NCBI GenBank assembly: GCA_963799845.1
Contig: CAWCYI010000004.1
Coordinates: 1,088,001 to 1,152,000, forward strand
DNA: 64,000 nucleotides
DNA from: an uncultured Nitrososphaerota archaeon
Lineage (GTDB): Archaea; Thermoproteota; Nitrososphaeria; Nitrososphaerales; CADDZS01
Direction: 5' to 3'
Shown here: piece by piece, positions 1 through 20,547 of the stretch
Layout of the letters: every line of letters begins with the position of its first letter
How positions within the stretch are numbered: the stretch's first letter is position 1
Program-made: the position numbers and the translations under genes
The notes under the pieces: model-generated
The model's input: only the letters and a program-made list of their open reading frames with translations
Told to the model about the DNA's origin: nothing
Databases searched by the model: none

Positions 1-1007
1 AAGTGCTTTGTGTTCTCCTACAGTTTCTAACTGCTACTACCCTATGACACATTCAGTCGATTTCAACGGAAGCTGGATAGAACGAAACGATTCGGGAACA
101 AACACGTCTGCGACGCTTCAGGATGAGTCCAGGCGTATACACTGTTGCCGGGGGTGACGAGTGGGGAGATCTCACGCTGTTGCATTTTGAGGTAAGCACG
201 ACATCGAACATTTTGGAAACCACGACAAATACTACAAACAGCTATCCACCTGGTTGTGACTCGCTGGGCTGCACTACAGTCGGCACCACGACGTCGAGCA
301 TTTGCTCGGTTTCGGCGGAGCCAACCGGTTTCTACCTCCATGTCATAGCGGATGGAACTTCTGATCCTATTCAGGGAGCAAGACTAAACGCGACGCTAGT
401 GAATGGATGCGGTTATCCTCCCGCCAGCCCGGATTATCAGATCATCACCACGAATTCGACTGGGTGGGCCTCGGTTTCTATTCCGCAGAATGCCTCAGGA
501 GCTTTCTCATTTATCTTCAACGTTCAGTTTCCCTCCGCTAATTTTTCAAAAACTTTTCAAGTAGGGTGGGCTCCGCAGCAGGGAACATTCGTAACGCTGA
601 GTTTGCCGTCGGGTGCCGTCAGCGTCAATTATCGCTTCCCTATCACCTGCAACGGCGTTTGCTACTATCTGGATATTTCTGAAGAAATTTCTGTCGTGCA
701 GCCGACTGGTGATTACATAATCCAGCTCTGGACAAACAATACCAATTCAGAGCCAACGATCTCAAACATTACGCTTCTAACACAACCTGCAAACCGAACC
801 CAGATCATCCAGTTTTACTTGCCGGTCGCAAGCTATGTATTTGTCAGTCCAACATTCACTCTGGTCCCGAACAGCAACGGCACGCTGTTTTACCTCACTT
901 CGGGTAATGGGACGAGGATCTCTACGACTATTGACACAACTAATAACCTGCTCTACACCAATGAAAAAGTCCACGGTTGGATCGAGATCAATTGCTTCAT
1001 AGCATGA
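1..1007 (+). CDS. 3' part of a secreted multidomain protein: end of GDEWG domain + prealbumin-like Cys module + C-terminal beta domain; begins before the window, frameshift near 120
   Basis: PGVYTVAGGDEWGDLTLLHFEV motif. Frame 2 from base 2 reads SALCSPTVSNCYYPMTHSVDFNGSW... and shifts into ORF 123..1007. GFYLHVIADGTSDPIQGA...TTNSTGWA module follows. Confidence 0.75.
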
Positions 1008-1062
1008 TCTAGACCTTCCGAGCCGCCACGGTACAGTTCACCTAGTATAATGAAGACAAGAT

Positions 1063-1308
1063 TCACAGGAGAAGAGCGCCAATAGAATGCGGACGATCCG
1101 GTAATAAGGGCAGAGATGGGTTGCAGGTCCAGGAGTAGGTACCGGCATATTTCGTTACGCCATAGTGAATCAGCTGACAGCTCAATGACTTGTAAATTGT
1201 GGTCGCTGTCCCTAGAGTTATGCTACCGACGTAAACAACGGAAGCTGCAAAGACAAAAGCTCCAACGAGCATGATGCCGATAGCAAGTACTATCCAACGA
1301 GTAGTCAT
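1063..1308 (-). CDS. small membrane protein with an extracellular Cys pair, possibly frameshifted or truncated
   Basis: N-terminal hydrophobic helix and two Cys. An alternative frame near the end gives a second hydrophobic stretch (NLVFIILG). Confidence 0.45.
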   Translation of the reverse strand: MTTRWIVLAIGIMLVGAFVFAASVVYVGSITLGTATTIYKSLSCQLIHYGVTKYAGTYSWTCNPSLPLLPDRPHSIGALLL

Positions 1309-1488
1309 CCTGTTTACTCAAGTGGGATCAAAGCCTATCCATACTTGAATCTTCTTTTCAGAACACTTCTCTCACCATTTGATTATGATTTTCATTCAGC
1401 TGAGAACCTCCAGTATAACAAAATTATGGCACCTAATGATCAGTAAATTCGACAGTCTCAAATAACGGTACAACACAACGATCTGGAC

Positions 1489-2010
1489 ATGTCCCGGAGA
1501 ACGCTGATGTGGGATGGCCTGGGTCTTCTTTCATTCATTTCCGGGTCGCTCTTGATCAGCAGTGCATCATCTCCGTCAATGTATGTCTCCCCGTACTGCG
1601 TCGGCGGGGAGTTGAATTTTTGCCCGGTGCTTTCGGAATTTAACTGGTCTCCCTGGTTTTTCGTCCTCGGAGTGCTCTTGGTATTTCTCGCCTACCCGGT
1701 TGCGCTCGCGGGATCTGACAAAAATCTCGATGAACCGCTCATTCTTAACCGAACCATTTCGGGAATCTCTTTCATGCTCACAGGTGCTGTGGTAACGATC
1801 CTCGGCGTGGAAAGCTTTCAGGAAGTCCAATTCATGGTAAATTGCCCAGTGAATTACTGTTCGACCGGCATATTCAGCCCGGTCTATCTCCTGAGCTGGA
1901 TTCAGATTTTCTTCGGTCTTTCTCTTGTAGCGGTCGGCGCCTTCCTTCTGGAATCAAGACGGTCCAAAAAGATGCTGATGCAGGAAACAGCTCAGCAAAT
2001 AACTGGTTGA
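1489..2010 (+). CDS. 4-TM membrane protein with two Cys-bridged loops
   Basis: Four hydrophobic segments; loops CVGGELNFC and CPVNYC. Confidence 0.7.
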   Translation: MSRRTLMWDGLGLLSFISGSLLISSASSPSMYVSPYCVGGELNFCPVLSEFNWSPWFFVLGVLLVFLAYPVALAGSDKNLDEPLILNRTISGISFMLTGAVVTILGVESFQEVQFMVNCPVNYCSTGIFSPVYLLSWIQIFFGLSLVAVGAFLLESRRSKKMLMQETAQQITG

Positions 2011-2048
2011 AAAGAATGATAACGTGATCTTTCTGTCGGTTGAACATA

Positions 2049-2456
2049 CTAACAGTCTATTGCCACATTTGATTGTTCCGAGGAAAGCGATAATCCATTA
2101 ACTGCCCATGCGAAGACATTGACAGTGTAGTTTCCATATGGCAGAGTTATGATCACGTATGTAGTTAGATTTTGTCCGCCAGATACAATGACACTAGAAG
2201 TGGAGACCTCGAGTGTTTGTCCAATTGAGTTGTGAAATACACCGAAGACGATTGCATTAAGCGAAATCGCCAAATTATTTGTAAGTGGAACTTCAATCGT
2301 TTGGTAGCCGAGCGGATAACACGATGCTGGTGATGGAACCGTGATTGGGTCCAAAAAATTTGCGCCAGTACTTGCCAAAATTGTAGTGTTCGATCCACCA
2401 ATCAGCAATATACCAACGATAATTAAATTCAACAATTTCATTTGAAGACAGTTCAT
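2049..2456 (-). CDS. secreted Ig-like protein resembling the C-terminal domain of thaumarchaeal S-layer-type proteins
   Basis: Signal peptide; VFHNSIGQT...YGNYTVNVFAW pattern. Family resemblance is from recall. Confidence 0.55.
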   Translation of the reverse strand: MNCLQMKLLNLIIVGILLIGGSNTTILASTGANFLDPITVPSPASCYPLGYQTIEVPLTNNLAISLNAIVFGVFHNSIGQTLEVSTSSVIVSGGQNLTTYVIITLPYGNYTVNVFAWAVNGLSLSSEQSNVAIDC

Positions 2457-2547
2457 ATCCCTTGTCTACCCATCAGCATGGGCTAGACGATCCTTTCGTA
2501 ATCATGTGCAATAAGCGTTCCTAAATCGAGAACGTGTAGTTTGATAC

Positions 2548-3861
2548 GTGGCTTCAAATATGGCCGATGAGCATGACTTGGTCATGAAATTGAAGAACGG
2601 GTTGGCGATCAGTCAAACCGCAACTATCATTGTGCTTGTCCTCATAATTGCAGGTGTTTCCGTCGGATTCGGATCCGGCTACGTTGAAGGTCAGCAAGGA
2701 AAGACGACGATAACAACTACAACTTCGCAGTATGAAGAGTCCCAGCAAACGATTATTTCGTTTCAGACGGCTACTACGACTGTTTCCAATTCGACCACGA
2801 TCTCCGAATACCTGGGTGCTGCTTCCACGACGGTAACTTCGACTCTATTCCAGACAAACGTAGTCAGCGAAAACGATTCGCTGTCGAATTTGGTGGTGGC
2901 CAACGTCACTGTTGACGGATTTCCAGACAGCATCGGAATCAACACGAATACCGATGTGGTGTACGTCGAGTACTCCTTCAATACGACGAACCTTGCAGTA
3001 ATCAATGGAAGTACAGATTCGTTGATCACGAGCATACCGCTGGGGTCGGCGACGCAGGCGACTCCCATAGTGAATCCGGATACAAACACGGTCTACATAG
3101 GAAACGTCATAATCAACGGAAGCACGAACGAGGTTTCCCAGTACTATAACCAGAGCTTGACCTTCGTCGCTGCCGACCCAAGCTCAAACGTAGTCTATGC
3201 GATGAACACGACGGGCTACGCTACAAACAGCACTACCACGATATTTGAGGTAAACGGCTCGAACAACAAGATCGTTAGCTCCGTCAGTTTTGAGGGAGAA
3301 CCCGCGGCTGGAGACAATCCAATCGCGATGAACGAGCAAACCGGAATACTCTACCTTGCGGTATGCACGAATGAATGCGGCTTTTTGGAACATTCTATCA
3401 TTGGAATCGGCCAGACCTCTTCCGGTCTCACGATTTTATCCCAGATTGCACTAGACCAGCTGGTGTTCAATATAGCAGTTGATCCTTCGACAAACATGAT
3501 CTTCGTCACTGCACTACAAAACCTGCTCATCGCTATCAACGGAACAACCGATCAGATTGTAGATGAGATTCCAATTACGGCGTACGCAAATGAACTCCGG
3601 GGAATCACAGTCGATCCTACCGGGAACGAAATTTTTCTGGCTGGTGGTCCCGACTGTCAAAGCTTTTCAGGCTGCGGAGCTAACACACTGTACGTAGTGA
3701 GCGAAGGAAATTACGGAATCTTTGCGATGTTCACGAGTCCCAATCCGTTCATCCTTCAATTTGACCCCGCGAATAATCAGACGTACGCCGTTTTCTATTT
3801 CTCTGATTTCGTGGCAGCGCTGAGGATACCACACTACAACGAGACGTTCCTGCTTCCGTAG
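2548..3861 (+). CDS. membrane-anchored YVTN/YncE-like beta-propeller protein
   Basis: TM helix, Thr-rich stalk, repeated blades (VNPDTNTVYIG, VDPSTNMIFVT, AVINGST). Start may be at 2560 or 2584. Confidence 0.85.
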   Translation: MASNMADEHDLVMKLKNGLAISQTATIIVLVLIIAGVSVGFGSGYVEGQQGKTTITTTTSQYEESQQTIISFQTATTTVSNSTTISEYLGAASTTVTSTLFQTNVVSENDSLSNLVVANVTVDGFPDSIGINTNTDVVYVEYSFNTTNLAVINGSTDSLITSIPLGSATQATPIVNPDTNTVYIGNVIINGSTNEVSQYYNQSLTFVAADPSSNVVYAMNTTGYATNSTTTIFEVNGSNNKIVSSVSFEGEPAAGDNPIAMNEQTGILYLAVCTNECGFLEHSIIGIGQTSSGLTILSQIALDQLVFNIAVDPSTNMIFVTALQNLLIAINGTTDQIVDEIPITAYANELRGITVDPTGNEIFLAGGPDCQSFSGCGANTLYVVSEGNYGIFAMFTSPNPFILQFDPANNQTYAVFYFSDFVAALRIPHYNETFLLP

Positions 3862-3876
3862 ATTCGTTATCACGAA

Positions 3877-4701
3877 TTAGTTCGTCTGATTTGTCGTTGG
3901 CGACGTAACGACAAAGTGCAATAGGACCATCTGTCCCCATTCGTCCCCGGCAGCAATCGTGTAGGCTCCATCGCTGAAGGGTGTCGAAGAGATGGTGATA
4001 TTTCCAGAATTTGACTCATACAAGCTCACGAATCCTGTTATCACATTGGAAGATGTCAATGCCGTATTGTATGTTATTCCTGAAGAATTCTCGAAAGCTC
4101 CGTAAGCTGCTGCCTGCGAACTGTTTGGCTGGAAGACGTAGTTTCGAAAGTCAAGATTGGGACAATATGAGGGTGAGCTGATACTGACATTCATCGGAAT
4201 CGAAGATGAAATGTTAGCTTGGGTATAGTAACCGCTGGAAACTAGGACAGATTCCCAAGCAGGGCAGGGGAAAAAATCTCCGGAGAAGTTTTGAAGGACT
4301 GGAATCGCCCAACCAGAAGCTCCGGTTACGTTGTTTATCCTCGACAATGTATTGAAAAGAGAGACGGAGATGTTGACCGCCTGACCGCTTTGAATTCTCG
4401 AGGAATTTATTGAAAGTTCAAGCTTCAACGCCAAGGATGAATTTGTAGTCTCGGCGAAAGTATCGTTGGCTGTTGAATCGGAAAGATTCTTGGTCGTAAT
4501 GTTGACCTTGACGGAACCGTTCGTGCGAGTTATCATAATGCTGGCTAGGACAGTGCCGATAAGAGCTACGGCAAAAAGAAATGCCACGAGCGAAATTATG
4601 GCAAAATGCGAGATTCTACCGCTTCTTGCGAATTTCAAAGGACTACTGCCACTTTTATGAAACACGAATGGATCCTCATTCTCATTGGAAGGACCTCTCA
4701 A
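3877..4701 (-). CDS. membrane-anchored GDEWG-domain protein
   Basis: TM helix; LKLELSINS...NNV...W...GYY...CP...YVFQP...AYTIAAGDEWGQMVLLHFVV. Confidence 0.8.
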   Translation of the reverse strand: MRGPSNENEDPFVFHKSGSSPLKFARSGRISHFAIISLVAFLFAVALIGTVLASIMITRTNGSVKVNITTKNLSDSTANDTFAETTNSSLALKLELSINSSRIQSGQAVNISVSLFNTLSRINNVTGASGWAIPVLQNFSGDFFPCPAWESVLVSSGYYTQANISSSIPMNVSISSPSYCPNLDFRNYVFQPNSSQAAAYGAFENSSGITYNTALTSSNVITGFVSLYESNSGNITISSTPFSDGAYTIAAGDEWGQMVLLHFVVTSPTTNQTN

Positions 4702-4832
4702 AGTTAGGTCAGAGGGCAGGCATCAATCGCAAAGCTCCTTATCTTCCATCTTGATTTTCACGCGGAGCCATCCTATAAAGTTCTAGTCCTCAGAACAATC
4801 AGATCTCATCCTCTTTACTTCCGGTCTAGATC

Positions 4833-5306
4833 TTACTCCGAAATGAGCGAGCCTGAAACTGACTCACCGTTAGCCAAGACAATCACGTAGTTCCAATCCT
4901 CTCCCGCCGTGATATTCACAGGAAATGCGGTTCTTGGATAATAGGTTAAGTTAGTTACTTTGCCAGAAGCGATTACATTGGCTGGAGAATGAACTGAGAA
5001 ATCAATCAGACTGGTCGAGTTTTCTCCGTCCTGCCATGTCGTTATTGTTATTCTCTCCTCCGTGACTGATAGCGAAGTTACATATGTTTCTGCTTCCGGA
5101 TTATTGAAAGATATCGAGAGGTTTGCTTTCGGTGGATTGGAGGACGACCCAGTGAGCCCATCGTAAAAGTTGGCCGATGAAAGGGTGAGCCCCGGATAAC
5201 TGGCATCGCAACCCAAACAGGTTTCCAAGGTTGCAAAGTACAGAGTTCCAGCTATCACTGTGACTGCCAGTGCGAGGATCAGGAGATTTCTTGCTTGGAA
5301 CTTCAA
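4833..5306 (-). CDS. archaeal pilin-like secreted protein
   Basis: N-terminal hydrophobic helix; C-terminal ITAGEDWNYVIVLANGESVSGSL resembles TACK pilin globular-domain tails; CxxC after the TM. Confidence 0.55.
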   Translation of the reverse strand: MKFQARNLLILALAVTVIAGTLYFATLETCLGCDASYPGLTLSSANFYDGLTGSSSNPPKANLSISFNNPEAETYVTSLSVTEERITITTWQDGENSTSLIDFSVHSPANVIASGKVTNLTYYPRTAFPVNITAGEDWNYVIVLANGESVSGSLISE

Positions 5307-5498
5307 TCGAGGAATACGATATTTCGTCTCACTAACGTTTTGGTCTTCTGGAGCACGAATCGTGTTTCGAGTTCTCGATCGTGTTCATTCTACGTACCCA
5401 TATGAGTTCCGAAGGAGCTAACCGAACCCGTTCTAACTCTTGAATTATTTGAGCTAAAGATTAGTCTCAAATATAACGGTCTCTAGCTATGCTGTAAC

Positions 5499-6041
5499 TT
5501 GCGGGACAAAGACACCAGATCAGCTATTTCGATCATCACCGGAGTTGCAGTTGTCGCTTTGGTTATACTTTCATCGGTTGCTGGATATCTGTTGAGCAGG
5601 TCGCAATTCTCCCAACAGACCACTACGGATGTAGTTTCGTCTGTATCCACTCAGACAATCATTCAGCTGAAAGAGACCACCATTACCACTGAGGAGACTA
5701 TTACTGAAGAGACGACATTGCCCTACAATCTAACATCGACTAGCCTCGTTAATTTGTTTACGATAACAGATGATCTAATTATCCAAGCTGTCGCGGGCTA
5801 TACGGTAACCATAAGCGGCAACTGCACTATCTATCCTGGCACAATCTCTGTAAGCAGCGTTTCGAACTACACGTCGATAATCTTGCCCACGAATGCCACC
5901 AGCAACCTTGCAACGATCACATACATTACGGACTATAACATCAGTGATGTTTCTACTACAATAACGTTAAACTCCGTTACAGTTTTGAACGGGTCAACAA
6001 TTACCACTATGAGCTTCTCCAGCTGCCCCAGCAGCGCTTAG
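5499..6041 (+). CDS. membrane-anchored Thr-rich protein with C-terminal Cys pair
   Basis: RSAIS followed by hydrophobic helix, Thr-rich stalk, two Cys. Confidence 0.7.
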   Translation: MRDKDTRSAISIITGVAVVALVILSSVAGYLLSRSQFSQQTTTDVVSSVSTQTIIQLKETTITTEETITEETTLPYNLTSTSLVNLFTITDDLIIQAVAGYTVTISGNCTIYPGTISVSSVSNYTSIILPTNATSNLATITYITDYNISDVSTTITLNSVTVLNGSTITTMSFSSCPSSA

Positions 6042-6158
6042 TACCTAGAAAGTTAACACTCAGTTGACAGGACACACCGATTGAAAGTAAAACTAGGATG
6101 CCTTTAATTCTCAACGAAACCTAAATAGAAGAGTACTGATTACGAACTCTCGCCTATT

Positions 6159-7055
6159 TTGGACCTACCAACTCATTTCTTCTTCGGAATCGCAGTGGCG
6201 CTTGTTTTCTTCGGGAGGCCAGAGGTGGCGCTTCTCGTCGGAGTAGGTGCACTCCTCCCGGATCTTGATAGAGAATACTGGTACGTGAAACCTCAGAAAT
6301 ATGCCGATGAACAGTATCACAGGGCCAGATTCCACAACGTTTTCGCCATTCTCGCTGCCTATCTCGTCAGTCCCTTCCTCTCCTTGGGAGTGTTCCTTCA
6401 CATGTTGCAGGATTCATTCACGACTGCAAAGGATCGGGGAGTAGAATGGTTCTATCCCCTGACCTGACTTGTCAAGAGAGGAATGTATGACGCCGACGGG
6501 AAAACACAGCCACAAGATCCCAGAGAACACGTTTACTTTTATCAGGAAGATCCGATAGGTATCATAGAACATGCCGACGTGGATCTAAGGGAAAACCATC
6601 CGGTACCATGGCGGAGAGTTTACGGGTTCGCCCAGAACAGCCACTTGCTTGACAGGGGATTCCTGTTCTGTTCGCTGGTTGTAATTTTGATCTGGTTTGC
6701 CGCTCCCATGACTTTTGCGAGATTCATGCTGTTTGGAAACTTTTTCCAGACAAACTGGCTCGTTTGGCTTCTCGGTTATCTTTCCGTCGTGGTTCTGTTC
6801 GCAGCCGGCGAAACTCAGCGTAGAGATGTCCCGGCAAAGCTTCCTCAATTAAAGCCAATCCAGCTTCCTCTTCTTATCGCTGGAATCATCTTGCTAGTAT
6901 CTTGGCTGGTGGTTTACGGCTCTCAGATTCTTAGTAATTTGATGAACATTTTCGCCGCTCCGCTGCCAATCGTTCTAGGCGTCATACTCGTCCCGATTAC
7001 CGCAGTCCTGGTCTTACTGTGGCAGATCAGAAAAGGCAAGACCACAGTTGTATGA
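6159..7055 (+). pseudogene. YdjM-like membrane metal-dependent hydrolase with an in-frame TGA at 6465-6467
   Basis: TH..., GALLPDLD, HRARFHN, HMLQD, G..WFYP motifs. ORF 6483..7055 continues in the same frame (YPLT*LVKRGMYD). Confidence 0.7.
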
Positions 7056-7305
7056 AAAAGCCACTTCGTATGAATCATAAATGCTTCGCTCGGGCCGGTG
7101 TCGCCCCAACCGGGAGTGTTTCTCGGTTCGATGTGCGATCAAAAGCGATCCCTCGACTGTTAATTGGGGATCCCACAAACTATCTGGAATAGAGCAAACT
7201 CAAAAACGAGTTTTCTCCAAGAATCCTAGGGCGATTTCTGTTTTCTGTAATCGATGTGAAACGATTATAATTCGTCTGAAACGAGTTAACGAAACAACGT
7301 GGTTT

Positions 7306-8085
7306 ATGATGAAAAACTTGAAGGTGTTCTTGAGCGTTTTACTATTCGGAGGGATGTTGTTACTTTTCACCGCGGAAACATTTCCTCTGACTACCGTCGC
7401 AGCATCAACGCAGTCTCCTCTGGCATCGACTCTCTATACCGGATACCAGGTGGTTGGTCCCTATACGACTTTGAGGGTCAAAGGTTCCTGGGTAGTCCCT
7501 ACTGCCAATTGCGCAGCAACGCCAAACTCTGTCTCGAATATCTCCGTGATCATCGACGGCATTAATGGCGAGGGCGACGCGATGGAGATTGGCACTTATC
7601 AGAACTGTGTCAACGGAGTTGCGGTCTACGGAGCCTTTGTGAATCTCTATCCCATGACTACATTCTACGGAAAGGGAGGCATCTCTAAGGTAGTCATTCA
7701 TCCCGGTGATATAGTTGAGGCCCAGGGCACCTGGAGACCTTCAACTCAAACGCCAGTAAACTGGAATACTAATTTCATCGATGAAACCACAAAAGTACAG
7801 GTAGATACAAACGCGCGCACAAGTTCTGGATTCAAGCCGGTCCTAGATTCCGGAGCAATAATTCTTAGTTCGGACGGTCATACTCTGACAGCTTTGAGTA
7901 CGATAGATTCGGGTCAACGTTACACGAAAGTTAATCCGTCTGATCTAACCGGACCGCAGCTGGCAAAGTCGACCTTCGGCGAAACTGGTGCCTTGGCTGG
8001 CTATACCCTCATCGCTTGGCAAATTCCTGGAACAACCTTGGGTCCATTGACAAACAGCGGATCCAGCTTCCAGATAACTGCGTAG
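7306..8085 (+). CDS. secreted peptidase G1 (A4, glutamic peptidase)-like protein, probably catalytically degenerate
   Basis: Signal peptide from ATG 7306; YTGY, VKGSWVVPTANC, IDG, EIGT, PGDIV motifs. Confidence 0.65.
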   Translation: MMKNLKVFLSVLLFGGMLLLFTAETFPLTTVAASTQSPLASTLYTGYQVVGPYTTLRVKGSWVVPTANCAATPNSVSNISVIIDGINGEGDAMEIGTYQNCVNGVAVYGAFVNLYPMTTFYGKGGISKVVIHPGDIVEAQGTWRPSTQTPVNWNTNFIDETTKVQVDTNARTSSGFKPVLDSGAIILSSDGHTLTALSTIDSGQRYTKVNPSDLTGPQLAKSTFGETGALAGYTLIAWQIPGTTLGPLTNSGSSFQITA

Positions 8086-8110
8086 TTCTCGGATAACTAC
8101 GCGGCTTTTT
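8080..8110 (+). terminator. hairpin plus T-tract after the G1-like gene
   Basis: GCGTAGTT-ctcggat-AACTACGC stem followed by a T run. Confidence 0.45.
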
Positions 8111-8229
8111 CTTAGTCCGGACACACTAATTCTCTTGTTTCGGAACGAAGGCGTATAGGATAGCGAATAGTAAATTATCTCAGGTTAGTTTTCCGATTCA
8201 AGTAATAGTCCGTGAATCGCATTCGTCGA

Positions 8230-9546: not shown

Positions 9547-9797
9547 ACGTAAGCTGGGCCAGATTAGGACTTTATGAATTGGGGATTAGTGACAGCGGGT
9601 TAGAATTAAGAGTACGAGTTACAACAAGATGATAGAGATCCTCCCTCGGTCTATTTTTGACAGGATCGTTATGTAAATAGGCATATTTTGTCATGAATTT
9701 CCCTTCCCTTCGCCTAATTTTAGTCGCTCATCAGTGCGATGCTATCCCAAGTTTTGCCGCGTCAATTGAGAACGCTATCGGGGGATCTTCTATAAAT

Positions 9798-12071: not shown

Positions 12072-12074
12072 GTG

Positions 12075-12479
12075 TTACTCTCTCTCGAGCTGTTCGATCT
12101 TTCTCGCCAAGATGCCCCTGATCTCGAATTCGAGCTTCGAAACTATTTCGTATGTTTGATCGTCCAGCAGATGTCTCATCCGATCGAGCGCGATTCGGAT
12201 CACAGTCTGTTCCCTCCTTAGATCACTTGTCCTCGATCTCTTTCCTAGTAAAACCGTCGTTTCGTCCTTCGGCCTTTTGTCAGGTTGAGCATCCAGCCGC
12301 AATTTTCTCGATTCGTCTTCGTAATACGATCGTACAAGCGTGATACCGAATGCAATCATGCTATCATAAGTCAACGATTTCAAGTTCGCACTTGTTCGTC
12401 CTCGCAGACCCTTTTCCAAGTCTTTTGAGAGCCGGTCTAGTTCTTTTATGGTCTTGTTGGTAATTGGAATCTTGGGCAT
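12075..12479 (-). CDS. hypothetical cytoplasmic protein with a possible ribbon-helix-helix-like N-terminus
   Basis: MPKIPITNKTIKELDRL strand-helix pattern; stop lies 3 nt before the next ATG. Confidence 0.55.
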   Translation of the reverse strand: MPKIPITNKTIKELDRLSKDLEKGLRGRTSANLKSLTYDSMIAFGITLVRSYYEDESRKLRLDAQPDKRPKDETTVLLGKRSRTSDLRREQTVIRIALDRMRHLLDDQTYEIVSKLEFEIRGILARKIEQLERE

Positions 12480-12600
12480 ACTTTCTCACTGGCAATATTT
12501 CAACTAAAAGTGCTATGGCGGTCAAGGATCATCTTTTATCGGAGAGTCGTCAGAACCTTAATAGCAATCTATCAAGTTTTGAGTCTCGATTGGGCAAATC

Positions 12601-13452
12601 TTGGCAAGCGAAACTGAATACCATCGATTTCGCGCAGGGAAAGATATGGAGACAGAACGTCTCGAATTGCAGGCTAAATCCTTCCGTGATTCCATCCAAA
12701 AGCAAATATCGTTACTTGGAATCAAGAAGGACAGCAACGTTCTCGATGCTGGTTGTGGAACAGGATCATTTGCCAGAGCGATCGCACCTCTCGTTTCACC
12801 CACGAAAGTAAGAGCGATTGACATCGAACCTATCTTCATTGAAGAAGCAAAAAGACTCTCAAGAATAAATGGAATCCCAAACATCGAATTTGAAATAGGC
12901 GACATTCAAAACCTTGGATTTCCAGATAAGACATTCGATCTTTCATATACCAAGTTCGTGTTTTCTCACCTGACGAATCCGATGAAATCTATTTCCGAAT
13001 TGATCCGAGTCACCAGAAAGGGAGGAATTATCGCTTCAGTTGACGAAGGAGGTTTGTTCGTCCATCCTCCGACATCGCTTGACAAATTCTTCGCATTATT
13101 TGAAAAGATGGCGCAGTGGCGCAAAGTAGCGCAGGCGCCGAATATGCATTCTTCAGAAAACATTGGAAAAGAACTTTTTCGGCAATTTAGTTCCAGTGGA
13201 TTGTCCAACGTAACCGTTTATCCCATTCCAACTTACGCATCTTCTTCGGAAAATCCTGGCATATTGAACGATCTCACGACCGTTGCTAGGCAAATGATTG
13301 AGATTTACAAGGACGAGATAATCGCGAGAGGTTTCCTGACCAAAACGGAATACGTTGAAGGAGTGAACGAACTTGAAAAATGGCTGCGGAGACCCGATGC
13401 GTTTTGGCTGGTCCTCACAATAATGACTGTGGGGACCGTAACGGATCCTTGA
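12601..13452 (+). CDS. class I SAM-dependent methyltransferase
   Basis: VLDAGCGTG motif I, AIDIE, GDIQNL, FD, RVTRKGG. Confidence 0.9.
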   Translation: MASETEYHRFRAGKDMETERLELQAKSFRDSIQKQISLLGIKKDSNVLDAGCGTGSFARAIAPLVSPTKVRAIDIEPIFIEEAKRLSRINGIPNIEFEIGDIQNLGFPDKTFDLSYTKFVFSHLTNPMKSISELIRVTRKGGIIASVDEGGLFVHPPTSLDKFFALFEKMAQWRKVAQAPNMHSSENIGKELFRQFSSSGLSNVTVYPIPTYASSSENPGILNDLTTVARQMIEIYKDEIIARGFLTKTEYVEGVNELEKWLRRPDAFWLVLTIMTVGTVTDP

Positions 13453-13679
13453 AGTCGAAGGGTATTTTTCCATCCGAAGACAGAATTCGGGCTCTACCAA
13501 AAAACAGCTATTTAGTGAATGGAAAATTCGAGCACCGGGAGATTCCGTTTCAAATTATCAATGACTTGATCTGATACTTTACTTGGATTGATTCTGTCGG
13601 AAGCAAACACTCTCTGTTCTAATTCGAGAAACAATCTCAATGCTATGTAGGTTCAAATAATACAGCTACAAACATCTGT

Positions 13680-14519
13680 TTGGATAGATTTTTGCAATCA
13701 CGGCTCGCGGCACTCGTCGCCGCCATTATAGTACTTGCATTGGCGATAGGGGCAACTATGGGATACACTTTCTCCTCGCAAAGAACATCCACTGTAACTG
13801 ATACCGCGACTATAATAAGCTCGCAAACCTCTTCGGTAACCCCCATACAGTTAGATTCTACAACGGTTTCTCAGACGACCACTATTTACCAAACAGTCAC
13901 ACGAGTGGTAGCCGGTGCCGAAAATGAATGCGAATTTACCGAAACTTGCAGCGTTCAAAGTCCTCTGGGTCTCGAACTGTTGCTCTCGGTAAACTCGACT
14001 CAACTCAGTCCAAACAACAGCATTTCCCTGAACATTACCGAGGTCAACATTCTTTCGACCGCAAACAACGTATCATTTTCCAATGCGTGGGCGATTGAAG
14101 GATTGGAGCAAATGTGTGTTTTTGAACCCGCTACAGGTTTCGCAGTATTCAGTGGATACTTTGCACTGAACAATCTTTCTTCCGCAAAGCCACTCGATCT
14201 TTGGCCAATAGTTCCGGAGTGTCCCGCCTCGTTCATATTCAATGGGACAACGATTGTTGGGATTTTGCAAAATGTGACGAGTTATTCGTTCCTTCCAAGA
14301 AGTGATGTCGCAAATTATTCCGCGTATTATATCCCAGAATCTTCCAATAATTCCGCGCTTTTGTTTGGCAAGTTTTCAATGTCAATGAGCACAATAAGAA
14401 ATATCTTTACGAACAATTCCTCGGAACCCACACTTAACTCGGTCGCACCAGCCGTTTACACTCTTGCTGTTGGCGATGAGTGGGGTGATCTTGTCTTGCT
14501 TCACTTTTCAGTAACTTAA
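13680..14519 (+). CDS. membrane-anchored GDEWG-domain protein
   Basis: TM helix, Thr stalk, LELLLSVNS...VYTLAVGDEWGDLVLLHFSV. Confidence 0.8.
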   Translation: MDRFLQSRLAALVAAIIVLALAIGATMGYTFSSQRTSTVTDTATIISSQTSSVTPIQLDSTTVSQTTTIYQTVTRVVAGAENECEFTETCSVQSPLGLELLLSVNSTQLSPNNSISLNITEVNILSTANNVSFSNAWAIEGLEQMCVFEPATGFAVFSGYFALNNLSSAKPLDLWPIVPECPASFIFNGTTIVGILQNVTSYSFLPRSDVANYSAYYIPESSNNSALLFGKFSMSMSTIRNIFTNNSSEPTLNSVAPAVYTLAVGDEWGDLVLLHFSVT

Positions 14520-14563
14520 CCAACAGAGCCGTATTCATAAGTTTCTAAAACAAGTGAAGGCAA

Positions 14564-14824
14564 TTGGAACGTAGGATTCTGATTTTTATTATCTCAGTAA
14601 TTGCAATTATAATTGTCATCTCTCTATTTTTTACAACTTCTTACAACCCTGATAACATGCTAACCGAAACAGTCTGTAGCGAAGTTGCCACAACTGTTGT
14701 TGGCGCAACACACGTAATTTCCAATTCTACGGGAGAAACAAGTTACACAGTATCAATGACATTAACTTACACAACAATTTCCACTATGATATATCACGCA
14801 GGAACTATGCCCTTATGTCCCTAG
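14564..14824 (+). CDS. small membrane-anchored Thr-rich protein with a Cys pair
   Basis: TM helix; C...C enclosing a Thr-rich segment. Confidence 0.55.
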   Translation: MERRILIFIISVIAIIIVISLFFTTSYNPDNMLTETVCSEVATTVVGATHVISNSTGETSYTVSMTLTYTTISTMIYHAGTMPLCP

Positions 14825-14877
14825 AATAACTGGCTTCTTACCCATCCTAACCTTAACGCACCTAACTTCCTAGATTG

Positions 14878-15390
14878 TTAATGTCTGTTTCTTTCAACTA
14901 GCTCCTGTTGTTGGCTGTGACTTTCACGTTGTAGTCTAATGCCGCCGATAGTGTACAGGACTATAGCGGCGGCAACCACCAGCAGCCCAATATCGGGAAC
15001 AGGAGCATAACAAGTGGAACCACAATCCAATTGCGAAAAGAAACTCAAGAATCCAAGCAAAAGAACGATATCGAGTATCATCACCGAGCCTGCCGCAATG
15101 GTTAGTCGACGTGAGTCCCATCGTTTGAAAATGACTACTACGCCCATGAGTAGCCCAACGACGTACAGAAATCCTGTGAAAATATTGTAATACAAAATAT
15201 TGAATCCGGGGCCAGCAATTATTGCTCCCGCGGAATAATACGTCGCTGAACCGTTGTAAGGCGTTGGAAGATAGAAAACCGGAATGAAAAGTCCTACAGC
15301 GACTAAGATAAGGAGAAACAAATAGGTAATTCTCTCTCTTGATAAGTCAAAGGTAGATCTGCGGATCCCAAATTTTTCCTTGTTCTGCAT
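14878..15390 (-). CDS. 4-TM membrane protein with a CGSTC loop
   Basis: Four hydrophobic segments. Confidence 0.7.
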   Translation of the reverse strand: MQNKEKFGIRRSTFDLSRERITYLFLLILVAVGLFIPVFYLPTPYNGSATYYSAGAIIAGPGFNILYYNIFTGFLYVVGLLMGVVVIFKRWDSRRLTIAAGSVMILDIVLLLGFLSFFSQLDCGSTCYAPVPDIGLLVVAAAIVLYTIGGIRLQRESHSQQQELVERNRH

Positions 15391-15412
15391 GGTTACACAC
15401 TCTTAGATCTTT

Positions 15413-16519
15413 TCAACCAGCATACTGAAACAAAAACTGCTGCTCCGAATATACTGTCCCGTTGTGTTCGTAGCCAATGAAAATAGCATAATTTCCTGGA
15501 CTGAGATGATCCGTATTGGCAGTCAACTCAATGCTACAAAACTGCCACGGAGAGTTTATAGAATCGTGCAGAGTTGAGGCTGTCTCGTTTGCTGTGATGT
15601 ATGGCGAGCTGGTGTTAACATAGAAACTCCCTGGCAATAGAGCAGTAATATTTCCAATGTGAATCGAGTAATTCACCCCGATCGAGGGATTGGAATGAGA
15701 CGTCGATCCGCCTGTTGAATTTAGAGCGCTATATGTATCATTTGCAGGACCTGCAATTGAAGGATAGGCGATGCCCAACCCCGTTACACCAATGATACTC
15801 TCGCCCATGTTCTGGTCGGATGTGGTACAACCATAGTTCGATGAGAGACTGGGAGAATTGAGAAACTGCCGAAAGTTATCTCCTCCTATTTGGGATGGGG
15901 AAAATCCAATGGCCAGAGGAAATAGACTCGGGCAGAAAAGTGGTGTTTCCAGCAGATAGAAACCGTCAACTGAATCATTGGATCTTATTGTGTAGGAAAC
16001 GACTGCGCTTGATTCATAAGAATTTAGTACAAAGTGGCTCCGGCTCGCAGTAACACCGACCGCCTGAGCTTGCAAAAGATAGGACGCGTTCCCATTTTCC
16101 AAAGTCACGGAAGATGAAGATGAAGACTCATTTTGCGGTTGAGCAAGCCAAACGGCAGGATTAATTGATTGCGAAAATGGTGTCGCCGTTTCTGGCTCCG
16201 CATAATAAATTACACACAATGTCGCGGATGAGCTAGCATTCATCAATAAGACAGTGAACTTTGCCTCTTGCGAGAAATTATTGCTTGGAAAGGGAGTCGG
16301 AGGATACGCGGTAGTACAACCTCCCGTGCCGGCATTATTCACCGGTGAGATCCAAGGTGTGTGTGGTGCAGTCCCATAAAACGGAGCATAAACGAACCCC
16401 TGCCCTACACCGAAAATGATTACAAATGACAACATAATTGCAAGCATCAGTAGTACCCTAAAGCCAGTCAGCATAAGGTTGGTTGTGCACTGTACAAGCA
16501 AAAATTGCGTGGGAGCCAC
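15413..16519 (-). CDS. secreted Cys-containing multidomain protein of unknown function
   Basis: Signal/TM helix, many NxS/T sequons, FCPSLFPLAIG motif. Start is probably downstream of 16519. Confidence 0.7.
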   Translation of the reverse strand: MAPTQFLLVQCTTNLMLTGFRVLLMLAIMLSFVIIFGVGQGFVYAPFYGTAPHTPWISPVNNAGTGGCTTAYPPTPFPSNNFSQEAKFTVLLMNASSSATLCVIYYAEPETATPFSQSINPAVWLAQPQNESSSSSSVTLENGNASYLLQAQAVGVTASRSHFVLNSYESSAVVSYTIRSNDSVDGFYLLETPLFCPSLFPLAIGFSPSQIGGDNFRQFLNSPSLSSNYGCTTSDQNMGESIIGVTGLGIAYPSIAGPANDTYSALNSTGGSTSHSNPSIGVNYSIHIGNITALLPGSFYVNTSSPYITANETASTLHDSINSPWQFCSIELTANTDHLSPGNYAIFIGYEHNGTVYSEQQFLFQYAG

Positions 16520-16792
16520 TTAAATTCTTGCTACCATAAAATGGACGTGGAATACATCTAGACTGCCGATTGGCAGTCCATCTGCCCCTAGGAGACTGCG
16601 CGCTTAATGCTAGAACTTTGCAACTCGACCGAGCCTTTTGGAGAAGTTAAGCTGCAAGAGGAAATGATTTCGTGAATTGCTTTGTCGAATTGCGCGATGC
16701 ATCTGCTCTGGTGATCAAAGCAGAAATTCTATACTAAAACATGAAATATCTCGTGACTGTATGAAATAGGTTTGCGGTAGCGAGATGCAAAA

Positions 16793-18572
16793 GTGACAGC
16801 CGTTAGGAACAAGTTTGTGATCGCAATAGTCGCTGCAATAATTGTTATCTCGGCTGTTGTGAGTGCTTATCTCATCTCGGGAACCTCGACCACGCTTGCA
16901 GTGCAAACCACAGGCGTGACTACAAATACAACATCATCTGCTGTCGAAACAACAGTTGCTGAGACCAGGAATTCTACCTTGGACTTGGAACTTTCTCTCT
17001 CGATCAATTCCACAACTGTTGAAACAGGCCAGGCGATCAATATCTCCCTCTCGTTGCAGAATACATTGCCCCGAATTAACAACGTATCCGCCGAATGGAT
17101 TTGGGCATTTCCATCCCTGCTCAATTTTTCATATTCCATCTTGCCTTGCCCCAGATGGGATACCTTCCGAGTCTTCAACGGCTATTATTCGAAGAATAAC
17201 ATTTCAAGCGCCGCGCCTCTCTATCTCTAGCCGATAGCCGAAGGTTATCCCTTGTGTCCAAACTGGAATTTTAGCAACTATCTCTTCCAGCCTTCCAGCA
17301 GTACGGTGAACGTGAGTAACACTTCCCCTTCGAATTATGATAATTCATTCAGCACGGCAGAAAGCCACTCGCTAGCCGGCTATTACTTCCCGAATCAGGG
17401 TACACCGGGCTCAAACGAGTTTCCTCCCGCCACACCTTTTCCAGTCGGTGTCTTCACTATAGCTGCAGGAGATGAGTGGGGGCAACTCACGATCCTTCAC
17501 TTTAATGTAATGCAGGGCTCAAAGACAAATCAGACCGCTAGCTTCTCCACATGCCAGGCTGTCGGCAGAGTTAATTCTACGATATCGACCGGAGGAAACA
17601 CAATCGGCGGGCCGATCGCATACGATTCACACGACAACGAGATTTACGCGGCTGGCACGAGTTTCAACTACCAAGGACCCGGACAGTCAAATTCGGTTTA
17701 TGCAATCAATCCTTCGACTAATTCTTCAACTGCCGCGATCGCGGTTGGCAGCGAACCGACAGACATTGCTTTCGATCCGAACAACAACAATTTGTACGTC
17801 ACAAACTTTGGTTCAAATTCAGTTTCAGTAATTAGCGACGCTACGAACAAGATAATCGGAAACATTTCTGTCGGAGCAGGCCCGATCAGGATAACGTACC
17901 GATCCCTACAACAAGGAGCTCTACATCTCAAACCGCATTTCGGGCACGGTTTCCGTGATCAACGCAACAACAGATATGGTCGCATCAAACATCGTAGTAA
18001 GCGGTTCTCCATTCGAGATAGTCTATGACTCGTTCAATCACGATCTCTATGTCACCGATGGTGCGTCCGGAAACGTCACGATTATTGATAGCAGCTCAAA
18101 CAAAGTCGTGGGAGGTTTTTCTCTTGGACAGGGTTCGGGAATGATTGCATACGATTCTGCAAATAACTACATGTACTTTTTCCCGCAAGACTCGCAAGTG
18201 CTCTACATTATCAACGGTTCCAATAATCAGGTTGTCGGAAATGTAAGCGGGATATATGATTTGAATGCGATCGCTTACAACCCTTCGAATGATGACATCT
18301 ACGCCGCCGGGAATGCAACAGACGGATTTCTCTATATAATATCTGGCAGCTCCACTAACAGTAGCGAAATCGTTTCTTCGGTCTACGGGCAAGGCTGGGT
18401 GCCTGTCGATTTCGTGTACGTAAACGGTTCGATGTATCTTGGCACGAATTATGGAAACGCGATTTACGTTTTGACTACAGAGGGAACGAGCACAACATGT
18501 ACCAACTCTAACTCTACAGTGACTTACATAGGATCCATCGTGACTATGATTATTACAACTTCAGACGGTTGA
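16793..18572 (+). pseudogene. GDEWG domain + YVTN beta-propeller fusion, interrupted by an in-frame TAG (17228-17230) and a +1 frameshift (~17900)
   Basis: ORFs 16793..17230 and 17252.. share a frame (PLYL*PIAEGYPLCP); FTIAAGDEWG motif; LYVTNFGSNSVSVI blades continue in ORF 17955..18572. Confidence 0.8.
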
Positions 18573-18749
18573 ATTTACCAACCTATTCAATCATGAATTC
18601 ACTCTTTTCACGCAATCTAATCCTCATTCGAGCAGTTAGCCCTAATATTTGAAACTATACAGTAACAAAACAGTTTTCAGAGAAGGAAAAGGAATGGTCT
18701 TGGGTACTGTTCTAAAGACTAGAACCTTATAGGATGCCATCATTTGTAG

Positions 18750-19292
18750 TTGTTTGTCATGAATAAACTGGTTGTTGTCACGGGCGCTGTTGGAATAATC
18801 GCATTGATTATTGGTGTTGCAATAGGCACTCAAATTCCGATCAGATCCACGTTTCCAATAGTGAGCATCACTGCAACTTCAACCCTGACGGTTACGACAT
18901 CTTGCAGCACTACATTCAACAGCATCGCCTGCTTTACAATTAGCGGGAGTTCTACAGGAGAAAGTTCCTGTCAGTTCATTACCGATGCAGGTCTGTTCTT
19001 CATTCGAGTCCTGAATGATTCCGGCGCTCCGGTGGAGGGGGCCTCCATCTCGGCGAATTACAACGAACCATTTTGTCCTGGCATGACCGTGTACACATCA
19101 ACACGAAGCCCACTTATTACGAATGCGAGCGGCTGGGCAGTTGACGATTGGAGTTTAATTGGGAACTATACCTACTACATCAACAACGATTTCAATCATC
19201 CGGTTAATGTCTTCCTGACATACAACATGTCAACATATGTCAGCGTAAGAATTCCATCGTACAACATCACGACCCTCTACGAACCGGATTGA
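18750..19292 (+). CDS. membrane-anchored prealbumin-like (carboxypeptidase-regulatory-like) Cys module protein
   Basis: FIRVLNDSGAPVEGASI...TNASGWA. Confidence 0.7.
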   Translation: MFVMNKLVVVTGAVGIIALIIGVAIGTQIPIRSTFPIVSITATSTLTVTTSCSTTFNSIACFTISGSSTGESSCQFITDAGLFFIRVLNDSGAPVEGASISANYNEPFCPGMTVYTSTRSPLITNASGWAVDDWSLIGNYTYYINNDFNHPVNVFLTYNMSTYVSVRIPSYNITTLYEPD

Positions 19293-19389
19293 AAGAGCTA
19301 TCCAAGAACAGCCTGTTCTGCACCTGCTTTGGTGTAGTAAAAAAAGTAGCACTAAATACCAATGACATGCTTACCTACTCAGCGGGAAC

Positions 19390-20547
19390 ATGGCAGTATA
19401 TGGGAAAACGATCATTGCCTCAGGAATCGCAATAGTAGTTGCCTTGTCAGTTGTTTTGGGCTTTTACTTCATTCAGCCACAACTAGCGAGTCAGGGCGCA
19501 ACATCGACGACCAAGACTACCTCTGTGAATGTCAACGGGACCAATCAGTACTCTAACCTACCAAAGATTTCAAGCGCTGTAAATTCAAACTTAGGCCTGG
19601 AAATGTACGTTTCGTTGAATTCCACACTTGTTAATCCAGGTGAGAGTATGCTTGTGAACATCACCGAAATCAATACACTTTCCAGACAGAGTAACGTGTC
19701 CTCAGCTGGGGATTGGCCTATCAAGGGGCTCACTCTTAGCGCGTGCGGATCGCTAGGTTATCCAGTAGGGGCAGAAATCTTTCAGGGATACTACGATTCT
19801 TCCAATATCTCATCTGCAAATGCTCTGAGCCTCTTCGCCTCAGGCATCTACTCGTGTCCCGCGATCTTTAACGTGGAGTACTTTGTCTTTCAGCCGATGA
19901 GCGACAACGGTACGATCTTCGCAGACAACGGGAACGGCAGCGGTGTCCCGTGTTGTAACGCCATTCCCGGACAGCCATATCCAATCACAGGAATATTGAA
20001 TGTCGGAGGTTACTGGGACAGTCAAAACAAAGAACACAACCTAATCCCAGGAGTCTACACGGTCGCAGCGGGAGACGAGTGGGGAGACATTGTACTGCTG
20101 CATTTCATCGTAACCACGTCAGTCATCTCGGAGGCAACGACAGTTTTCGGTTCCGTTTCGGTGAGTGGTTCGAGCGCTCTTTCAACATGTACTCAACTCG
20201 AGACTGCCCCACTATTCCTGACAATAAAGGCAGCTTCAACTGGAGACCCAATAAATTCTGTTCCGATTACTGTCCAAAAGTTGACTCCTCAAAATCTTTG
20301 CGAAGACAATGGCAACGCTGGCTCCAACAGTTCTGATCTCGGCACAATGGAGACAGATGTAAACGGGACAATTGAATTGCAATGCTGCAGCGGTGATGAA
20401 TTCTTGTTCAACATAACCTATTCTGGAACTAGCTATTACTTCAATGCCATTTCCGAAGGAGCTGAAAGTGCCGAGTGCATTACTTTGTTCCTTCCAACTT
20501 TGGAAACAACTACAACGTACTCCCCACAGTTTCAGTATGAGTGCTAA
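19390..20547 (+). CDS. membrane-anchored GDEWG domain + prealbumin-like Cys module protein
   Basis: PGVYTVAAGDEWGDIVLLHFIV, then LFLTIKAASTGDPINSV...TDVNGTI. Confidence 0.85.
   Translation: MAVYGKTIIASGIAIVVALSVVLGFYFIQPQLASQGATSTTKTTSVNVNGTNQYSNLPKISSAVNSNLGLEMYVSLNSTLVNPGESMLVNITEINTLSRQSNVSSAGDWPIKGLTLSACGSLGYPVGAEIFQGYYDSSNISSANALSLFASGIYSCPAIFNVEYFVFQPMSDNGTIFADNGNGSGVPCCNAIPGQPYPITGILNVGGYWDSQNKEHNLIPGVYTVAAGDEWGDIVLLHFIVTTSVISEATTVFGSVSVSGSSALSTCTQLETAPLFLTIKAASTGDPINSVPITVQKLTPQNLCEDNGNAGSNSSDLGTMETDVNGTIELQCCSGDEFLFNITYSGTSYYFNAISEGAESAECITLFLPTLETTTTYSPQFQYEC

Follow-up and report, generated by a model that had tools for sequence, protein, structure and literature searches.

An uncatalogued family of extracytoplasmic β-sandwich domains marked by a GDEWG motif in soil archaea and peat bacteria

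Introduction

A 64,000-nucleotide stretch of DNA from an uncultured Nitrososphaerota archaeon (contig CAWCYI010000004.1, positions 1,088,001 to 1,152,000; assembly GCA_963799845.1), hereafter referred to as the window, contains five genes that each carry the amino acid motif GDEWG, and it raises the question of what kind of protein these genes encode. The genome from which the window was taken contains an archaeal small-subunit rRNA gene. A previous interpretation made from the letters of the window alone (the sequence-only reading) had viewed the five genes as divergent, membrane-anchored paralogues of an archaeal, lineage-expanded extracellular domain without a named family, and had envisioned a polymorphic adhesin, receptor or decoy. 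Here, we show that the GDEWG motifs mark an uncatalogued family of extracytoplasmic β-sandwich domains of about 180 residues. This domain family is real, sizeable and unnamed; while its structural kind is ordinary, its distribution across two domains of life and the swap of its membrane anchor are of interest.

Results

Five GDEWG motifs close a common domain

The degenerate GDEWG-coding pattern GGNGAYGARTGGGG matches the window at five sites, namely at positions 153 (+), 3935-3948 (-), 14472 (+), 17468 (+), and 20071 (+), while a mean of 0.00 matches was found in 100 dinucleotide-preserving shuffles of the same 64 kb. Every match lies in a segment of an open reading frame (ORF) that ends with (Y/F)T(V/I/L)xxGDEWGxxxxLHFxV; the observation made in the sequence-only reading is thus confirmed. 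The GDEWG motif closes a domain of about 180 amino acids that carries the elements LxLxLS, N(T/I)L, NNVS, a Trp and a Cys residue, GYY..NISSA, a second Cys-Pro, and Y.FQP.S. When the 10 motif-bearing copies of the genome were aligned, their pairwise identity ranged between 25 and 47%, with a single pair at 64%, and 19 columns were invariant across the eight intact copies. The proposed common scaffold of about 180 residues is therefore substantiated. In an alignment of 70 sequences that includes relatives from outside this genome, two Cys residues are invariant (70/70) and about 20 further positions are conserved in at least 90% of the sequences.

A large family without an entry in curated libraries

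The notion that the domain lacks a named family withstood comparison with both Pfam and NCBIfam, neither of which yielded a confident full-length match to a curated family. In hmmscan searches with the copies from the window (E <= 1), Pfam provided no credible match for the domain, and none of the 70 aligned members was matched by Pfam except for four single spurious matches at E-values of 0.005-0.009; NCBIfam did not match the domain either. All 16 close database relatives that we inspected are devoid of a Pfam domain and, where they carry a name at all, are annotated as 'hypothetical protein'.

A profile search of a database comprising 1.84 billion representatives (clusters at 50% identity) recovered 1,646 representatives at E <= 1e-3, 1,256 at E <= 1e-10, and 267 at E <= 1e-30. 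Most commonly, these are proteins of 210-240 amino acids consisting of an anchor, a short linker, and the domain at the C-terminal end; some proteins possess two domains. A literature search with the term 'GDEWG' returned one unrelated paper only. As far as their main texts were available to us, three studies on Gagatemarchaeaceae (PMC10640624) and Nitrosotalea (PMC4836417, PMC5767755) make no mention of such a family. Exported proteins of unknown function that are specific to Nitrosotalea are tabulated in the supplements to these papers, and the two family genes of N. devanaterra may be among them.

The predicted fold is an Ig-like sandwich resembling BsuPI/IPI

The AlphaFold2 model that we calculated for the domain of copy 5 from the 70-row alignment is all-β and of high confidence (predicted local distance difference test, pLDDT, 95.3; predicted template-modelling score, pTM, 0.88), in keeping with the β-sandwich anticipated from the sequence. 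Along with the structural comparisons below, the model leads us to view the domain as a probable immunoglobulin (Ig)-like (E-set) sandwich of the IPI type to which insertions have added about 70 residues. The sequence-only reading had also considered the domain to be disulfide-stabilized; the Cys pair is indeed invariant, and since it is, the two residues probably form one disulfide bond (C56-C93 in the numbering of copy 5).

In an exhaustive structural alignment against 48,161 chains, the top match was IPI (3isy), the intracellular proteinase inhibitor of Bacillus subtilis and the namesake of the BsuPI family (PF12690), with a Z-score of 7.6, a root mean square deviation of 3.2, and 108 of 117 residues aligned; the macroglobulin (MG) domains of α2-macroglobulins came next at Z 7.3, followed by many Ig and fibronectin type III (FnIII) domains. 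A second line of evidence is provided by the ESM Atlas, in which BsuPI clusters are the nearest named neighbors of family member P0157 (feature score 0.88; 178 and 173 shared features), with template-modelling (TM) scores of 0.50/0.66 over 126 residues when the structures are compared; for copy 3, BsuPI appears at 0.77. The near-invariant residues N20, G85, and Y87 of BsuPI correspond, in this order, to the near-invariant residues N32, G158, and Y160 of the GDEWG family, and hhalign places the N32 region in the register of N20. Both families open with a strand, continue with a second strand of the type G-x-x-(I/V)-x-(I/V) and then the invariant Asn, and both possess a late P-G-x-Y strand. Collectively, these data suggest that the GDEWG family is probably a distant relative of BsuPI/IPI, a likeness that exists at the level of the fold and of the language model only. 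The two domains also differ: BsuPI/IPI spans about 100 residues and the GDEWG domain about 180. Features peculiar to the latter are the GDEWG hairpin and an invariant pair of Cys residues, while the conserved S-x-Q-x-(Y/F)-D-F and W-R-W-S strands of IPI have no evident counterpart in it. As far as described in the portion of the IPI study available to us, relatives of IPI are often exported, lipid- or transmembrane-anchored and fused to surface domains; IPI itself is possibly a lipoprotein or surface protein, and its homologs carry signal peptides, a transmembrane anchor or cell-surface domains (PMC3901451).

Two other groups of sandwiches resemble the model. MG domains of α2-macroglobulins and of the complement proteins C3/C5 match at the level of the fold (Z 6.2-7.3; 84-88 residues), but they occur in long arrays along with a thioester domain, whereas the GDEWG domain is single or paired and has no sequence match to them. 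Bacterial α2-macroglobulins are membrane-tethered envelope defense proteins. Generic Ig-like/FnIII accessory domains, such as the C-terminal domains of glycoside hydrolase family 3 (GH3) enzymes, RbmA and the C-terminal domains of the type IX secretion system (T9SS), are non-catalytic sandwiches of exported proteins (VIA Z 6-7); GH3 C-terminal accessory domains are the best matches found by Foldseek in the PDB (E 2.5e-4), yet there is no sequence relation and the TM-scores are 0.32-0.39 by query.

Several candidates were discarded. A profile search of the PDB sequences gave arrestin as the best match (E = 0.064), which we rejected as a chance hit, and a relation to cupredoxins or metallochaperones was dropped since no ligand motif was apparent by eye. 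A homodimer prediction for the copy-5 domain scored 0.00 and was uninformative either way.

Conserved loops and one hypervariable segment

A conserved core surrounded by variable loops, as proposed in the sequence-only reading, is not what the alignment reveals. Column entropy does not differ significantly between the strands of the model (mean 2.15; n = 80) and the remaining positions (mean 2.22; n = 98; p = 0.66), and 13 of the 24 most conserved positions fall outside the strands. The most conserved block is the C-terminal hairpin (mean entropy 0.79). Variation and indels are concentrated in one segment, residues ~110-157, with block means of 2.2-3.3; one block within this segment is occupied in 22% of the sequences, while another contains insertions with a mean of 6.7 residues. 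Hence, the pattern is that of a conserved set of loops combined with a single hypervariable segment.

Membrane anchor, stalk and sequons

The proposed extracellular location and N-terminal anchoring are borne out. Each of the four copies that lie inside the window starts with a hydrophobic anchor followed by a Thr/Ser-rich stretch, and among the archaeal members with a complete N-terminus, 54 of 55 possess a strongly hydrophobic stretch of 19 residues. Of the 29 bacterial members whose N-terminus is complete, 27 have a hydrophobic region with [GAS]-Cys behind it, a feature that none of the 55 archaeal ones shows; the bacterial proteins continue with a Thr/Pro-rich linker behind this lipoprotein-type signal. 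The Chloroflexota members thus carry a putative lipidation site. Including the anchor, the region preceding the domain has a median length of 64 amino acids in archaea and of 57 in bacteria. By eye, the N-termini lack a consistent [KR]-[GA] cleavage motif as found in the class III signal peptides of archaeal type IV pilins, and no recurrent neighbor gene was detected in 80 loci.

The copies encoded by the genome contain 2.1-5.5 N-x-S/T sequons per 100 amino acids, compared with 0-0.9 in five cytoplasmic control proteins from the window, and most of them exceed their own shuffles in sequon density. Their combined Lys and Arg content is 2-4% versus 10-13% in the controls. Sequons recur at profile positions 14, 39, and 76 in 78, 59, and 79% of 63 archaeal domains, but in only 31, 19, and 53% of 32 bacterial domains, in which position 14 is mostly occupied by Asp. 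We infer that the archaeal sequons may be N-glycosylated. Thr-rich glycosylated membrane-proximal stalks are a feature of archaeal surface glycoproteins, for instance the haloarchaeal S-layer glycoprotein. The GDEWG proteins resemble these in their Thr/Ser-rich linker between anchor and folded ectodomain and in their high sequon density; they differ from them in that the anchor is N-terminal, not C-terminal. They are small proteins (typically 210-240 amino acids) and, as far as known, do not form S-layer lattices.

Dense sequons with three conserved positions in the archaeal members, along with the very low Lys and Arg content, could indicate a passive glycoprotein coat in which the domain is a stable scaffold for N-glycans close to the membrane that reduces the access of protons and organic acids in acid habitats. 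The patchy distribution of the domain would be compatible with such a role: it is found in the acidophile Nitrosotalea, yet only in 2 of the 43 sampled genomes of that family (f12), the other 41 being without it. Furthermore, in the part of the N. devanaterra study available to us, cell-surface glycosylation is proposed as an adaptation to acid (PMC4836417). However, the bacterial members have largely dispensed with the sequons and nevertheless kept the conserved loops and the hairpin, a mere scaffold would need neither an invariant D-E-W nor conserved loops, and the link to the habitat is derived from record titles only. We therefore regard a purely passive coat as unlikely.

Distribution and transfer to bacteria

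The domain is present in 13 of 41 relatives of the archaeon: in 10 of 12 members of its own family, in both members (2/2) of one other family, and in none of the 26 genomes (0/26) of the remaining 18 families; one of the genomes counted (G001) is unpublished. Of 301 genomes sampled evenly across the phylum, 6 possess the domain, the window's own among them. To survey prokaryotes at large, one genome per species was scanned with a pattern derived from an 8-row alignment, and the best 80 of 163 relatives were kept; their taxon and habitat labels are those of the record titles. These best 80 come from 34 isolate labels of Nitrososphaerota (Nitrosotalea, Conexivisphaerales, and Gagatemarchaeum among them), seven unplaced archaea, three Bathyarchaeota and one Methanomethyliaceae, in addition to 12 Chloroflexota, one Fibrobacterota and one Acidobacteriota. 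By title, most holders are metagenome-assembled genomes (MAGs) from peat, bog, fen, and soil.

The archaeal scope assigned to the family in the sequence-only reading was thus too narrow, since bacterial lipoprotein versions exist. The five 'bacterial' holder genomes that we inspected all encode the bacterial ribosomal protein L20 (5/5) and none encodes the archaeal L21e (0/5); in one of them (G339), L20 and the family gene are located on the same contig. In an even sample of the phylum to which this bacterium belongs, the domain was found in the seed genome only (1/301). In a quick, unrooted maximum-likelihood tree of 105 domains, 31 of the 32 bacterial rows form one group nested among archaeal rows, although this group is weakly supported (Shimodaira-Hasegawa-like approximate likelihood ratio test, SH-aLRT, 81); the bacterial grouping requires 2 changes, as compared with 27.6 in shuffles. 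The simplest reading of this tree is that the domain was passed from archaea to Chloroflexota in one or two transfers. The Acidobacteriota row and one of the Chloroflexota rows (L022 and L023) are identical or nearly so, their branch lengths being 0 and 0.004, which probably reflects mis-binning rather than transfer.

A membrane-tethered binding module as the proposed function

What might such a domain do? We consider it reasonably likely that the family represents a membrane-tethered, non-enzymatic Ig-like binding module of the BsuPI/IPI type in the cell envelope, a reading to which the lack of a catalytic partner domain and of a conserved operon partner has led us. In archaea, an uncleaved N-terminal hydrophobic anchor and the Thr/Ser-rich, sequon-rich stalk would tether the domain to the outside of the cytoplasmic membrane; in Chloroflexota, the lipoprotein-type signal and the Thr/Pro linker would fulfill this task. 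Such a tether would place the domain near the membrane, either below the S-layer or in the zone that it occupies. A contact site common to the family may be formed by N32/L34/N39, W46, G70-Y72, N76, F104-P106-S108, the Y-T-x-x-x-G-D-E-W-G hairpin and H175, while the hypervariable segment (~110-157), which differs between old paralogs, might provide each of them with a specificity of its own. The most concrete candidate for a partner is an extracellular peptidase that would be reversibly blocked, by analogy with IPI; a glycan or another envelope partner is about as likely as a peptidase, and the passive glycoprotein coat considered above has a comparable likelihood.

Several points speak against this proposal. 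The Pfam BsuPI profile (gathering score 22.9 bits) finds no match (0) in the genome, and BsuPI does not appear in hmmscan searches with the window copies at E <= 1 or with the 70 members at E <= 0.01. With hhalign, the comparison of the two families reached a probability of 2% over 34 columns (4 sequences) and 13% and 20% over 30 and 25 columns (16 sequences), the alignment being limited to the first strands, albeit in the expected register. No chain (0) attained Z >= 8 in the structural alignment, and the Z of 7.6 for IPI is within the range of unrelated sandwiches, given that the typical best Z of the aligner is 7-8 for models lacking a clear Foldseek match; the top PDB matches of Foldseek itself are GH3 domains at TM-scores that are low. 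The inhibitor role of IPI has been questioned by its own authors in the portion of their article available to us (PMC3901451). That the conserved residues lie together is an assumption, and the estimate of selection described below comes from one usable orthologous pair. Finally, hairpins resembling G-x-Y-T-V...D-x-x-G occur in other Ig-like domains, and the one found here may be conserved for folding alone.

Two more specific roles can be weighed against the same data. The domain could be a surface-tethered peptidase inhibitor or shield, with each paralog blocking a different extracellular peptidase, own or foreign, and thus protecting an envelope that consists of an S-layer only in peptidase-rich acid soils. 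BsuPI/IPI and the MG domains of α2-macroglobulins are the nearest named neighbors in fold and features, and the authors of the IPI study propose, in the part available, that a conserved protruding loop acts as a wedge that reversibly blocks subtilisin (PMC3901451); conserved loops are a property of the GDEWG family as well. A homolog of the glutamic peptidases (G1; Peptidase_A4) is encoded in the same gene island of the window, which is weak context, and a serpin-like ORF (as read from the sequence) is located directly upstream of a family gene in 1 of 80 loci (L020). However, the matches to MG domains and IPI are generic Ig-like matches, the HMM and hhalign tests do not establish homology to BsuPI, and the peptidase neighbor is not conserved, as no neighbor recurs across the 80 loci. 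Taken together, we judge a dedicated inhibitor to be rather unlikely.

Alternatively, W46, Y72, D166, E167, W168, N32, and N76 might constitute a putative sugar-binding site of a lectin-like adhesin for plant, peat or envelope glycans. These conserved Trp, Tyr, Asp, Glu, and Asn residues are situated mostly outside the strands, the domain is fused only to other surface modules, its holders are mostly from peat and soil, and the best PDB matches of Foldseek are accessory domains of glycoside hydrolases. Yet, no match to a carbohydrate-binding family was obtained, the short stalks would keep most members beneath the S-layer, and the autotroph Nitrosotalea also holds copies. Hence, we accord a lectin function a low likelihood.

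State of the five genes in the window

The coordinates of the five genes are compiled in Table 1. Copies 1 and 4 are defective, whereas copies 2, 3, and 5 are intact.

Table 1. GDEWG genes in the window and their parts
Feature	Position	Strand	Remarks
Copy 1, 3' part	1..1007	+	Domain continues 2-127; frameshift near 125-130; stop 1005-1007; gene start ~1.05 kb upstream of the window
Copy 1, GDEWG hairpin and LHFEV	129-194	+	Next frame after +1 frameshift
Copy 1, C-terminal extension	195-1004	+	Stop at 1005-1007
Copy 2	3877..4701	-	Anchor, Ser/Thr/Asn-rich stalk, GDEWG domain 3907-4446; intact; profile E = 1.2e-67
Copy 3	13680..14519	+	Anchor, Thr-rich stalk, GDEWG domain 13953-14513; intact; profile E = 2.2e-59
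Copy 4	16793..18572	+	Anchor, Thr-rich stalk, GDEWG domain ~16970-17509; profile E = 1.1e-47
Copy 5	19390..20547	+	Anchor, stalk, GDEWG domain 19579-20112; intact; profile E = 1.2e-68
Copy 5, C-terminal Cys-rich module	20113-20544	+	~144 aa

The assembly was checked with short-read contigs of four soil-metagenome runs from one study (X1, X2, and X3 among them) that were compared with positions 1-19000 of the window. Among the sequencing runs listed as containing this DNA, none was of RNA. The profile matches copy 1 in two pieces (window -340..85 and 48-194), and its +1 frameshift near 125-130 is confirmed: record 1 of X1 covers positions 1-1709 and 202 bases upstream with 0 differences, and record 17 of X3, spanning 116-418, contains the frameshift as well. 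A plain pseudogene is a simpler reading of copy 1 than a programmed frameshift. Copy 4 contains an in-frame TAG codon inside the domain (17228-17230), which was confirmed by record 8 of X1 (15799-18159; 0 other letters), and an apparent frameshift at 17899. The latter is an indel error of the assembly, since base 17899 is left out in both X1 and X2. Decoding of the TAG as pyrrolysine was rejected: a PylS protein above the cut-off was not found in the genome (the best TIGR02367 match scored 19.7 bits against a cut-off of 178), and TAG terminates 600 of the 1,749 long ORFs (34%); the TAG of copy 4 is therefore a stop codon.

The start of copy 2 is uncertain. A TTG at position 4701 yields a protein with the anchor, while the database gene call (P0011; 219 amino acids) starts later and lacks it. 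The copy-3 protein terminates one residue past LHFSV. The C-terminal region of copy 4 contains β-propeller-type repeats, with an NHL match of 20.0 bits (cut-off 20) along with propeller families below their thresholds.

Copies in the genome and their evolution

In the 4.6-Mb genome, a profile built from eight intact domains produced 15 matches that correspond to 13 loci, ten of which carry GDEWG and two ADEWG. The locus at C4:2119755-2120427 is broken by a TGA and a TAG codon. The loci are clustered: two genes are found at C4:652-654 kb, three at C4:2066-2069 kb, and others in the window. One of the copies (L002 3481-4407; G000:C4:2066480-2067406) matches positions 26-182 of the profile only, and its listed form lacks an anchor; a truncation or a further indel of the assembly may account for this.

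The ten motif-bearing copies do not group together in the tree but are spread over several places (7 changes, 3 of them forced by starred branches). Some of them have orthologs in other genomes, L076 being the partner of the C6 copy and L082 the sister of copy 3. Because the paralogs of this genome are scattered among domains of other archaeal phyla and of Chloroflexota, most of the duplications must be old. The claim of a lineage expansion is hence partly correct; this genome does hold the most copies (13 loci as compared with 0-7 matches in 40 relatives), but they arose mostly from old duplications. Only one orthologous pair with at least 60% identity was present among 97 candidate ORFs. Its nonsynonymous (dN) and synonymous (dS) substitution rates are 0.089 and 0.765, respectively, a ratio of about 0.12; the values for L006 and L076 are the same, as are their identity (84.3%) and the span compared, and the two are therefore counted as one pair. 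Thin as the evidence from one pair is, it is that of old paralogs under purifying selection with some recent decay, and not of a rapidly diversifying family.

These data bear directly on the polymorphic adhesin, receptor or decoy that the sequence-only reading had favored, if it is taken to mean a family that selection diversifies, for instance against viruses. Multiple and tandem copies, the hypervariable segment, and the decay of copies 1 and 4 and of the C4:2119755-2120427 locus would agree with it. The low dN/dS ratio of the one measurable pair does not support this idea, nor do the age of the paralogs and their orthologs in other genomes, and a search of the viral structure library BFVD returned 0 matches at E <= 0.001. 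We thus consider it very unlikely.

Proteins that naturally possess two domains (L061 3668-5050, L087 3758-5059; also L018 and L048) combine two different clades. In L061 and L087, the first domains cluster together and the second domains do likewise, which hints at distinct types of paralogs working in pairs.

Neighboring genes and additional modules

Most other ORFs between positions 1 and 21400 encode an N-terminal hydrophobic stretch followed by Thr/Ser/Asn-rich sequence without a Pfam match [2049-2456 (-), 2548-3861, 4833-5306 (-), 5499-6041, 15413-16519 (-), 18750-19292, 20541-21407], so that this region looks like an island of envelope glycoproteins. The Peptidase_A4 homolog mentioned above (7081-8085, +) is an anchored protein with a match of 23.6 bits (cut-off 22.3). 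In the middle of the island, ORF 8230-9546 (-) encodes a 438-amino-acid protein without an evident anchor that matches DUF5679 (E = 1.3e-8). A single extra base of the assembly at position 10504, left out in X1 and X2 in the same way as base 17899, falls within the unrelated ORF 10290-12071 (-), whose listed 3' end is therefore probably wrong. The remainder of the window (35230-36393 and 50083-61930) is devoted to ordinary metabolism and encodes an S-adenosylmethionine synthetase of the bacterial/eukaryotic type, two amidohydrolases, and an Opp-type peptide ABC transporter along with a binding protein.

In copy 1 (195-1004) and in the C4:2068k gene (L002 5990-6406; G000:C4:2068989-2069405), another recurrent module is located behind the domain. 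The two modules are related (BLASTP E = 5e-6; 29% over 112 amino acids), and between the C4:2068k module and the C-terminal module of copy 5 the similarity is weak (E = 0.025). By eye, the first strands of this module resemble domains of the CarboxypepD_reg type. Among 74 long members of the family, the sole Pfam families found fused to the domain were Big_2, He_PIG, CarboxypepD_reg, CarbopepD_reg_2, Big-like, and DUF7347/HTH_20, each in one protein, and Chloroflexota clusters of the ESM Atlas add fusions to He_PIG and rhodanese. The two largest clusters of non-family genes in the 80 loci consist of antisense ORFs. From the translations, the N. devanaterra family gene is placed among ORFs of a housekeeping type.

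Implications

One can combine these strands into a broader scenario, in which an array of membrane-tethered, BsuPI-like binders, each paralog with a variable segment of its own, would neutralize extracellular peptidases or other attacking proteins and thus adapt the envelope of S-layer-only cells to acid soil and peat; the family would have arisen in Nitrososphaerota-type archaea and would have been passed once to peat Dehalococcoidia, where a lipid anchor replaced the transmembrane anchor and the N-glycan sites decayed. We regard this scenario as speculative and unlikely. If its link to acid habitats and a peptidase-binding role were true, it would bear on how uncultured archaea of acid soils protect their envelope.

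The family itself is large, comprising no fewer than 1,646 clusters (50% identity), and absent from curated libraries. Its description should help annotators to classify hundreds of surface proteins now labeled 'hypothetical' in soil Nitrososphaerota, Bathyarchaeia, Methanomethylicia-type archaea, and peat Dehalococcoidia. The putative transfer from archaea to Chloroflexota, with its swap of the anchor and loss of sequons, would constitute a natural experiment that shows how an envelope protein is adapted when it moves from one domain of life to another.

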